Positions 16,545 through 18,480 of a stretch of DNA of 38,896 bases are shown in pieces (the first letter of the stretch is position 1; every line of letters starts with the position of its first letter). Location: positions 1 to 38,896 of IMG/VR virus record IMGVR_UViG_3300020045_014315; one strand, given 5' to 3'. Both the position numbers and the translations under genes were made by a program. The stretch is from a virus. Its lineage: Duplodnaviria; Caudoviricetes. The notes under the pieces are model-generated. The model had not been told where the DNA came from, searched no databases, and saw only the letters and a program-made list of their open reading frames with translations.

Positions 16545-16913
16545 ATGATACAAACTAAATTACCTATAATCTACGGATCAAGAAATGAAAAAAAAGGAAT
16601 CATAAAAATAGAAGTTAGGCCTGAAACACCAACTAAAGAAGGTACGGAGTACTTGGTTATTGATTGGGACACTGCGGACACAAAAGACGCTTATTTTTCA
16701 AAAAAAGTATTCTACGATAATGCAAAGATTGAGCAATTAGATGCCTATATCGAGGCTAATTATTCAGAAGAATTAGCCGGCTTGACAAAAGCAGAAAAAG
16801 AATGGAAAAAGATTCAAATCGGTTTGATGATAGATACCCAAACAAATCTTTTGCCGTCAGGAAAAACTATTTACGGACTTAATCCCGAAGATTGGGAATT
16901 TACGGAGTTATGA
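16545..16913 (+). CDS. Hypothetical protein (possible fibre chaperone)
   Basis: 122-aa ORF immediately after fibre gene with A-rich start region. Confidence 0.6.
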   Translation: MIQTKLPIIYGSRNEKKGIIKIEVRPETPTKEGTEYLVIDWDTADTKDAYFSKKVFYDNAKIEQLDAYIEANYSEELAGLTKAEKEWKKIQIGLMIDTQTNLLPSGKTIYGLNPEDWEFTEL

Positions 16914-17245
16914 TTGGGTTTCTACTTTTCGTCATCGCATTAATCCTTATTTTCTTTTTGACAATTGTCAATTATTTTTATGTGGAAAATAAAAAAGGGT
17001 ATTTTTTAAGTACTGCTAAGAACTTGGACATTTTCGCTAATCGGGAGTTTAGAGCCTTATGGAACGCTGTTTTAATTGAGCCGGACGGTTATAAATTTGG
17101 AAAGGAGGGTGAAACGCTTTCCAGCGCGTTGGGCAAAAATCAACGCTTAGAGAAGCTGAAACCTAAAGGTTGGTGGTTGGTTCGTCAACTTGATCGGTTA
17201 GACGAAAATCATTGCTTAGAATCGATAAATGAATCGATTGTTTAA
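16910..17245 (+). CDS. Hypothetical phage membrane protein
   Basis: ATGA-coupled start at 16910; N-terminal TM helix; ETLSSALGKN...LDRLDENHC. Confidence 0.65.
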   Translation: MIGFLLFVIALILIFFLTIVNYFYVENKKGYFLSTAKNLDIFANREFRALWNAVLIEPDGYKFGKEGETLSSALGKNQRLEKLKPKGWWLVRQLDRLDENHCLESINESIV

Positions 17246-17252
17246 AAGGTAA

Positions 17253-17393
17253 TTCTCAGGAGGACGGGAATTAAAAAGTAGTCCTCCAACAAATTAATAC
17301 TTTCTCAGGGTAATTAAAATTTAGCACAAAGCCAACGTTGGAGGACATAAGTCTTCTAATGTTGGCTTTGTTATTTTAATAATTATCCTGAGA
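17253..17393 (+). ncRNA. Candidate structured cis-regulatory RNA leader upstream of the TS-fold gene
   Basis: 21-bp stem 17326-17346/17351-17371 and 13-bp outer stem 17303-17315/17381-17393; all four non-Watson-Crick pairs are G-U on the + strand. Additional stem 17259-17265/17281-17287. Confidence 0.65.
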
Positions 17394-17433
17394 GCTGCAA
17401 ATATAGAATAATCAATCATCAATCAAAAATCAA

Positions 17434-18075
17434 ATGAATAAGTATCACCAAATCTTAAACAAAATTATAGCCAAGGGCAAGAACCAGCAAAATAAAAAGG
17501 GTTCAATCACCTATCTCATTAATCAAACACTGGAATTAAAGCCAATAGACCTGTTGGAGTTGTTCGAGGGGCATTCTGTGGCACGAAAAAAGCTAAAAGA
17601 TGAATTAGGTCTATTTATGGCAGGCGAACGCTCTACGGAGGCTTATCGTGAAGTTGGTGTAAGTTGGTGGGATTATTGCGGTCCTATCCTTGTCAATAGC
17701 TATCCAACGTACTTTGAGCAGTTGCCTAAACTGTTAGAGAAAATCAATAAAGAAAAGCGTACGTCAAAGAATTATGTGTTGTTTCTCGGTTCCAACAACA
17801 CCGAGAGCAACCAACAGCCGTGTTTGAGTCTTATACAGTTCCAAATAGAGAAAGGAAAGCTTATTGTTACTGCGTATCAGCGTAGCTCTGACGCTAATCT
17901 AGGCCTGCCCGCTGATATTTATCATTTGTATTTGATAAGTAAGCAGATTGCCCTGCCATTGAAGTCTATTACGTTGTTTTTGGGTAACGTGCATGTGTAT
18001 GAGAATAATGTGGAGGGTACTAAGGAGTTGCTGAGCGGTCGGGAGGCGGTTAAGTTTAGTTTAAATGTTGTTTAA
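17434..18075 (+). CDS. Thymidylate synthase (ThyA)-fold protein, short and divergent; possibly dCMP-specific
   Basis: PC130, QR150SSD153, H187VY motifs retained; D161 at the position of E. coli ThyA N177. Confidence 0.85.
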   Translation: MNKYHQILNKIIAKGKNQQNKKGSITYLINQTLELKPIDLLELFEGHSVARKKLKDELGLFMAGERSTEAYREVGVSWWDYCGPILVNSYPTYFEQLPKLLEKINKEKRTSKNYVLFLGSNNTESNQQPCLSLIQFQIEKGKLIVTAYQRSSDANLGLPADIYHLYLISKQIALPLKSITLFLGNVHVYENNVEGTKELLSGREAVKFSLNVV

Positions 18076-18085
18076 AGGGTAATTA

Positions 18086-18114
18086 AAAAGGCTTCACGTA
18101 GTGTGAAGCCTTTT
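18086..18114. terminator. Bidirectional intrinsic terminator
   Basis: AAAAGGCTTCAC-GTAGT-GTGAAGCCTTTT. Confidence 0.85.
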
Positions 18115-18136
18115 GTATGTTTGTTGGGAAAAAGGT

Positions 18137-18170
18137 ACATTTTAATTTATATTTGTGGACATTTTAATTT
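18137..18170. repeat. 12-bp direct repeat ACATTTTAATTT x2 at 22-bp spacing, flanking TATATTTG
   Basis: Copies at 18137-18148 and 18159-18170. Confidence 0.7.
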
Positions 18171-18229: not shown

Positions 18230-18442
18230 GTGGCTAAGAATATTAAAAAGATAGGCGTTAAAGTAAAATCTAAACGAGTGGAGTTGAATTATACACAGTT
18301 TGATTTGGCGGTTTATTCCAACTGTAGTCTATCTATAATATCCGAGTTAGAAACAGGCGTTTCCACAGGAGTAACGCTGTGTACACTAATAAAATTAGCC
18401 GAAGCATTAGAAATAAATGTAGATTCATTATTTTGCCAATAA
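18230..18442 (+). CDS. XRE-family HTH transcriptional regulator (GTG start; upstream ATG 18190 is out of frame at an A9 tract)
   Basis: KRVELNYTQFDLA...SIISELETG...TLIKLAEALEI HTH_3 pattern. Confidence 0.85.
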   Translation: MAKNIKKIGVKVKSKRVELNYTQFDLAVYSNCSLSIISELETGVSTGVTLCTLIKLAEALEINVDSLFCQ

Positions 18443-18480
18443 TTTTTGTATTTTTGTTTAAATGTAAATAGATATTAAGT

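Follow-up and report, generated by a model that had tools for sequence, protein, structure and literature searches.

An uncurated RNA family of Bacteroidota temperate phages with predicted control of DNA-modification genes from both strands

Conserved element and proposed role

The virus record IMGVR_UViG_3300020045_014315, a complete 38.9-kb stretch that was analysed whole and is here called the window, carries in its tail region a conserved structure of about 150 bases. This element occupies the gap between a gene stop at 17245 and the start of a thymidylate synthase (TS) homologue at 17434. It represents a regulatory RNA family of Bacteroidota temperate phages that is real, widespread and uncurated, with a predicted function. 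The family, its position, its covariation, a backward promoter box at fixed distance, the opposite G-U polarity of its competing helices and U tracts on both strands are established. Because the wobble polarities are opposite and U tracts occur on both strands, both strands look selected as RNA: one as a sense terminator, the other as an antisense RNA of ~120 nucleotides (nt). The favoured interpretation, which is given an even chance, is antisense-reinforced attenuation that would silence DNA-modification genes in lysogens, with late transcription releasing them.

Temperate phages must keep DNA-modifying enzymes off in the prophage state and on when DNA is packaged; the control in phage Mu is the classic case. 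To our knowledge, Bacteroidota phages operate without Shine-Dalgarno control. No described mechanism for such control in Bacteroidota phages was found in the literature searched, subscription papers lying outside its coverage.

Structure of the element

On the plus strand, positions 17240-17420 fold at -66 kcal/mol (z = -11.3; 0/200 shuffles as good), and on the minus strand at -51.4 kcal/mol (z = -7.3). The plus-strand order is stop codon, small hairpin H0 with segment A, A tract, B, F, C, F', D, B', loop, E, D', U-rich tail, C' and promoter box. The element is the window's sole combination of promoter box and strong hairpin, two other candidates reaching about -34 versus -51 kcal/mol.

A first-pass annotation of this DNA had described a long hairpin at 17303-17393 whose non-Watson-Crick stem pairs are all G-U on the plus strand. 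This hairpin is present at 17302-17394, with 36 pairs; its non-Watson-Crick pairs are four internal G-U pairs and one terminal U-G, all on the plus strand. The outer stem joins C (17302-16) to C' (17380-94), and the inner parts join D (17326-36) to D' (17361-71) and B' (17337-46) to E (17351-60) around a loop at 17347-50. The D/B'/E/D' hairpin and the U-rich tail at 17368-79 make up a predicted sense intrinsic terminator (17326-17379, plus strand). At least five T within the 8 nt after the last G-C pair are found in 185/221 elements (mirror 118), and at least six of eight in 112/221 (mirror 32).

Segment B (GTCCTCCAAC, 17281-17290), which wobble polarity assigns to a minus-strand helix, is the perfect complement of B', as first described, and its 7-bp pairing with A (GGAGGAC, 17259-17265, plus strand) is also present. 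A perfect A:B run of at least 5 bp occurs in 77/95 relatives, versus 15.0 in shuffled sequences. A lies in the loop of H0 (17251-17272, plus strand), which forms a hairpin of -4 kcal/mol or better in 45/91 relatives versus 19.3 in shuffles. In L286 (1474-1490) and other Bacteroidales elements, H0 often has a sense-strand C-UUCG-G tetraloop and begins at the stop codon upstream, where terminating ribosomes could influence the pairing of A with B.

A second conserved helix, absent from the first-pass annotation, is F:F' (about 17294-17303 with 17307-17317; 17294-17317 overall). It is enclosed by B:B' and exclusive with the long outer stem; a run of at least 6 bp is found in 67/94 TS-anchored elements versus 15.9 when shuffled. 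The annotation had also proposed that two copies of TTCTCAGG could each pair with the 3' end of the long hairpin. Both copies are present, and the duplication appears incidental: pairing of the upstream copy over at least 6 bp occurs in 2/91 relatives (shuffles 1.1) and is not conserved.

Covariation among relatives, proposed as a check at the outset, is found in B:B' and C:C': 13 of the 16 pairs tested change on both sides, and 0/500 shuffles reach as high a value, in a test that relatedness inflates. In isolation, the B-to-B' segment folds into a three-way junction, and in 235/239 elements the antisense version of this fold is the more stable one. In nascent sense RNA of the window, the optimal structure at the point where B' has just emerged is B:B' together with F:F'; the terminator replaces it at a later stage. 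The mean cost of forcing B:B' is 19.1 kcal/mol for full-length antisense RNA and 25.8 kcal/mol for sense RNA, pseudoknots being outside the folding model; the forced fold comes within 5 kcal/mol of the best in 4/221 elements as antisense and 3/221 as sense. The hairpin tip has an unpaired probability of 0.33 on the antisense and 0.13 on the sense strand.

Strand assignment by wobble polarity

Where one strand has a G-U pair, the opposite strand has an A-C mismatch. Pairing registers were scored neutrally, and internal non-Watson-Crick pairs were then classed by strand. In B':E, 111 such pairs are of plus type, 3 of minus type and 22 other. In B:B' the polarity is reversed, with 38 minus, 1 plus and 3 mismatches (95/97 TS-anchored elements parsed), and it recurs in two sets not selected on B: 32 minus to 1 plus with 6 other in a set found by the outer-stem pattern (51/55 parsed), and 21:0:0 in an ABC-GNAT-anchored set (18/19). 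A set found by the B pattern was left out of this claim, as it admits C-A but not T-G in B:B'.

The minus-type wobble of B:B' appears in 19 distinct sequence contexts versus 1, and C-to-T changes in the C-rich B are almost absent, though they would be harmless if the sense helix alone mattered. F:F' also leans to the minus strand: its ratio in the TS set is 14:1, and 33 further mismatches are of other types. The earlier suggestion of selection on the sense RNA therefore holds for the hairpin tip, with its 111:3 bias; it fails for the 10-bp alternative helix, which is mainly an antisense-RNA helix. Wobble polarity taken helix by helix can thus assign overlapping RNA structures to strands.

Promoter box and predicted antisense RNA

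The motif TAnnTTTG is described as the -7 box of the Bacteroidota primary sigma factor (PMC7366714). One such box, TATATTTG, lies on the minus strand at 17398-17405, next to the base of the long hairpin; the first-pass annotation had recognised it but set it one base off (17404-17397 instead of 17405-17398). Among 96 hairpins collected with a detector that ignores the promoter, 86 have a reverse box, in 83 cases 1-4 nt from the stem end, against a background of 393/30,898 windows (1.3%) and a mirror control of 0. A sense box upstream is not enriched (8 matches in 94 stretches of 300 nt), and a same-strand long open reading frame (ORF) ends at most 76 nt from B in 89/94 relatives; the sense RNA is therefore likely to arise by read-through. 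A second reverse TAnnTTTG box lies at 17460-17467 on the minus strand, within the start of the TS gene.

On the minus strand, the B helix is immediately followed by a U tract, seen as an A tract on the plus strand (17272-17280). At least five A within the 8 nt 5' of B are found in 217/221 elements, and in 4/221 in the mirror control. Promoter position, wobble polarity and U tract together point to an antisense RNA at 17273-17393 on the minus strand, with its predicted 5' end near 17393 and a length of ~120 nt (family median 125). The idea of an antisense-controlled leader, put forward at the start, is thus supported by covariation and by the fixed position of the promoter box.

In a Hankyphage-like locus (L286), Logan RNA contigs were continuous across the element in 2/7 RNA runs and broke in or beside it, at 1460-1604, in 5/7 runs (4 studies); one run of unknown kind continued through this breakpoint region. 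Such contigs are uninformative about strand, ends and level, and library preparation is prone to disturbance by strong hairpins; the hint is weak and these observations were not used as evidence.

Distribution and cargo genes

TS relatives were sampled as the best 80 of 587 viral and the best 80 of 352 genomic. A looser hairpin-plus-box detector fired in 129/161 TS loci, the window included, and in these loci the element precedes TS or the first gene of the TS operon. In an ABC-GNAT-anchored set the element occurs in 77/79 loci. Motif searches independent of TS yielded an estimated 370, 800 and 580 stretches, chance matches included. In all, at least 250 non-redundant candidates come from Bacteroidota temperate phages, and 239 of them parse; hosts include Bacteroides and Flavobacterium. 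A pattern search matched 18/301 Flavobacterium genomes (control 0); a pattern search in 301 Bacteroidaceae genomes gave 4 matches versus 2 in the control and carries no information. No element was seen in rSAM_mob_pairB loci (15 genomes and 10 viral contigs examined), and apparent back-to-back double elements turned out to be palindromic double matches.

The gene that follows is of several kinds. Among the 134 motif-only elements listed, the gene that comes next is a Mor-like 80-aa ORF in 55, a phrog_56 methylase in 20, Dam (D12) in 18, a 42-aa ORF with ABC-GNAT in 10, TS-like in 9, an ORF of 61-75 aa of unknown function in 4, a small ORF before lysis genes in 3, Mom in 2, Dcm in 1, and another gene or none in 12. 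True Mom homologues (PF25680) lie 3' of the element. Genes upstream vary and include lysin, holin-like and hypothetical genes. In Hankyphage p00, the element follows the diversity-generating retroelement (DGR) cassette and stands 5' of the 80-aa ORF, TS and methylase; in Flavobacterium phage fF4, a match precedes a methylase. Dam, Dcm and Mom are anti-restriction DNA modifiers, and we infer that the remaining cargo modules are as well. At four loci (L456:1696-2001, L353, L301 and L473) a membrane protein and lysis genes follow the element, with no modification gene.

One operon behind the element comprises the 80-aa ORF, ABC-GNAT, a formyltransferase-like gene (by eye) and a radical SAM gene. 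Three other loci (L602:4468-7555, L449 and L181) carry the 42-aa ORF, an ABC ATPase-GNAT fusion, a formyltransferase-like gene and a radical SAM gene. This cargo is probably an uncharacterised DNA-modification module. The ABC-GNAT gene appears to be split into two ORFs in L161, L181, L229 and L435 (Flavobacteriales phages), possibly by a frameshift. The element marks modification cassettes of unknown chemistry, both the cytosine-type TS and the ABC-GNAT-formyltransferase-radical SAM set.

The Mor-like ORF is often first in the operon after the element. The element may control this ORF as an activator or repressor that would in turn control the enzymes. This ORF ends in a short inverted repeat (L286:1653-1892 and L401:3680-4000), and in all 41 loci with this tail a sense TAnnTTTG box comes next, before TS.

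Gene setting in the window

Terminase and portal of the window are of lambda type and its tail is contractile and P2-like; its closest relatives lie in Flavobacterium. The upstream gene (16892-17245, plus strand; tail region, phrog_3342, function unknown) has its stop codon 35 nt 5' of B. An A-rich stretch of ATCA/ATC repeats at 17410-17433, 5' of the start codon, recurs in many Flavobacterium relatives and is possibly a translation enhancer or part of an upstream promoter.

The short TS homologue (213 aa; 17434-18075, plus strand) retains the catalytic Cys, with Asp in place of Asn177. An Asn177-to-Asp change shifts TS specificity to deoxycytidine monophosphate (dCMP) (PMC8670742). Because Asp stands at this site in 159/160 relatives, dCMP is the likely substrate; the protein probably modifies dCMP, and its annotation as thymidylate synthase would then be wrong.

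A terminator-like hairpin with A and T flanks (18086-18114) closes the cassette. After it, in mid tail operon, sense TAnnTTTG boxes stand at 18116 and 18148 (region 18116-18155), followed by an XRE helix-turn-helix gene (18230-18442) and an additional box at 18449.

Relation to catalogued RNAs

The element had not been recognised as a named RNA family, and the Rfam 15 search agrees: the window has 0 matches at the gathering threshold, and 20 related loci gave tRNAs only. By E-value, the top-ranking matches are unspecific hairpins that score well short of the threshold (mir-7131, for instance, reaches 37.2 of 74 bits). No description of the element was found in the literature searched, again with subscription papers outside coverage. 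In the main text of the Hankyphage paper, as far as available, 'antisense' is used once, for gene orientation (PMC12135933).

HMP2_1881 (partner HMP2_1576) is a candidate structured RNA from Fremin and Bhatt 2021 (PMC8040213). Its model has 108 nt and its instances 108-126 nt, 139/142 are from Bacteroidales, and it was called on both strands; its neighbours include Radical_SAM, NAT_SF, CcmA-like ABC, Dam, thyA and Phage_Mu_F, and it was expressed 13/13 times at 304-28,854 reads per kilobase per million (RPKM) (PMC8040213). Judged from its description, it resembles the element in length, taxon, both-strand call and cargo domains, and the operon with the 80-aa ORF, ABC-GNAT, formyltransferase-like and radical SAM genes fits these neighbours. 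The passages available from that paper give no mechanism, promoter, polarity, strand logic, role or Flavobacterium members. HMP2_1881 is somewhat more probably than not the same family, in which case the structure has already been catalogued. Another hairpin motif of Bacteroidetes that is missing from Rfam is the GUCCY-hairpin (Weinberg 2010, PMC2864571), whose name motif is similar; it is a single hairpin of ~35 nt with unlike sequences (first alignment rows, by eye) and was rejected. FopS is also different from the element.

Proposed mechanism and points against it

Since no sense promoter box is enriched upstream, late-operon mRNA would read through into the element. The sense RNA would fold D/B':E/D' and terminate at the U-rich tail. 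Host polymerase would transcribe the ~120-nt antisense RNA, whose tip would be loose because the sense G-U pairs turn into A-C there, and whose 3' end would close the B/F three-way junction before the U tract. This RNA and convergent transcription would act together: because the antisense RNA would pair with the nascent leader across F and B, B could not capture B' and the terminator would win. After induction, strong late transcription would outrun or occlude the antisense promoter, B:B' with F:F' would form first on the nascent sense RNA, the modification gene would be read and progeny DNA would be marked against host restriction.

Several points weigh against this scheme. The transcript, its start site and its regulation are all sequence-based predictions, and no -33 box is evident. 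In full-length antisense RNA, the B junction is on average 19 kcal/mol less stable than the long hairpin, which would also form first; either pseudoknots would close this energy gap, or the B junction would form only once the 5' half is bound or cut. About 40% of elements have a C-A mismatch in sense-strand B:B', so the sense antiterminator of the induced state may be weak or dispensable. An alternative antiterminator on the sense RNA is the best fold of the nascent window RNA, yet its polarity is antisense and the energy gap is large. B and B' have further pairing partners on the sense strand, which might skew the spectrum of substitutions; wobble polarity is inconsistent in D:D' and C:C', and the counts are of sequences, not independent events. 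With a cut-off of five T in eight, sense U tracts exceed the mirror control by a moderate margin only (185 vs 118).

Alternative explanations

Possible, though on balance doubtful, is an arrangement without any switch. The sense hairpin would be a constitutive terminator overridden by a phage late antiterminator, and the antisense RNA would only remove leak, by duplex cleavage or promoter interference; B:B' would serve as the antisense terminator and A:B would protect the upstream mRNA end. The antisense-only polarity of B:B', the ~26 kcal/mol by which the sense terminator state beats forced B:B', and the conservation of A:B all agree with this. A simple local hairpin would, however, suffice as an antisense end, and the sharing of B' with the sense tip together with the exclusive F:F' exceeds that need.

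Rather unlikely is a bidirectional RNA toggle: a 150-bp stretch with two mutually exclusive folds, each G-U-tuned to one strand, in which sense and antisense transcripts would each decide the other's termination. The antisense B/F junction may then be doubly pseudoknotted. If true, DNA-modification cassettes of temperate phages throughout the Bacteroidota, Hankyphage among them, would share this toggle as their general late switch.

The energy gap of the B junction on the antisense RNA gives rise to an unlikely reading in which the switch resides in the minus-strand transcript, as a mutual toggle. Here the long hairpin would form first and hide B', and transcription would continue past the U tract and cover the upstream late genes with a long antisense RNA; capture of the antisense 5' half by the sense RNA would let the B/F junction form and terminate the antisense RNA short. 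Synthesis order and energy favour the long hairpin on free antisense RNA, yet the B/F junction with its U tract is selected there, and STnc6030, a long antisense RNA over prophage structural genes, is a precedent (PMC7067206). Against this reading, the relatively open antisense tip (0.33 vs 0.13) argues that B' may be reachable unaided, and the expression of HMP2_1881, if it is the same family, fits a short abundant RNA.

An improbable alternative is a free-standing, trans-acting small RNA, serving immunity or superinfection exclusion or binding a protein, with its modification-gene neighbourhood as a by-product. It would fit the element's own promoter, own predicted end and compact predicted fold, as well as the high expression of HMP2_1881, a possible match; the sense-strand G-U polarity, the U tract and the constant location ahead of the first cargo gene indicate cis action instead. 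Very improbable is a DNA-level inverted repeat (cruciform, retroelement or packaging signal): both strands do fold and the element follows the DGR cassette in Hankyphage, but strand-specific G-U wobble in two helices, a fixed promoter box and variable upstream genes speak against it. The folate or nucleotide riboswitch of the first-pass annotation, suggested by alternative pairings 5' of a TS homologue, hardly deserves credence, as only 9/134 of the motif-only elements (among the matches listed) precede a TS-like gene while others precede Dam, Dcm and other methylases, Mom, ABC-GNAT or Mor-like genes, the switch helix is selected on the opposite strand and Rfam has no match.

Comparison with known systems

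Attenuation in pT181, pIP501, pAMbeta1 and Shigella RnaG/icsA shares with the element a convergent promoter, an antisense RNA over the leader and an intrinsic leader terminator. At the sequence level, both a convergent promoter over the leader (86/96, background 1.3%) and an intrinsic terminator before the gene are found here; a simple scan missed the terminator of L286, whose stem is bulged. RnaG acts also by transcriptional interference (PMC2879508). Unlike in pT181 and RnaG, the leader of the element lies between two genes of a phage late operon and is probably transcribed by read-through, the predicted antisense RNA spans the terminator itself, and the helix that competes appears to be selected on the antisense strand.

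The control of phage Mu mom consists of C, Com and a translation-inhibition hairpin. As in Mu, the element is predicted to guard a DNA-modification gene, Mom homologues occur behind it and a Mor-like ORF often leads the operon. Unlike in Mu, no com is seen at the element, control appears to lie at termination, and the hairpin ends 20-50 nt before the start codon and leaves it uncovered. The start codon follows the promoter box at a distance of 10-45 nt and is thus not part of the hairpin, which does not match translational control of the com-mom type.

P22 sar and lambda aQ are phage antisense RNAs, and sar blocks a ribosome-binding site. Like sar and lambda OOP/aQ, the predicted antisense RNA is a short phage RNA from a host-type promoter that would silence a gene reached by read-through (OOP: PMC7067206); it differs from them in fold and phylum. 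For Hankyphage, a common gut phage with an inducible laboratory system (PMC12135933), the element is a concrete candidate for modification-gene control. Compared with these systems, the family would be a variant of antisense control of a phage terminator, with a function predicted from its sequence.
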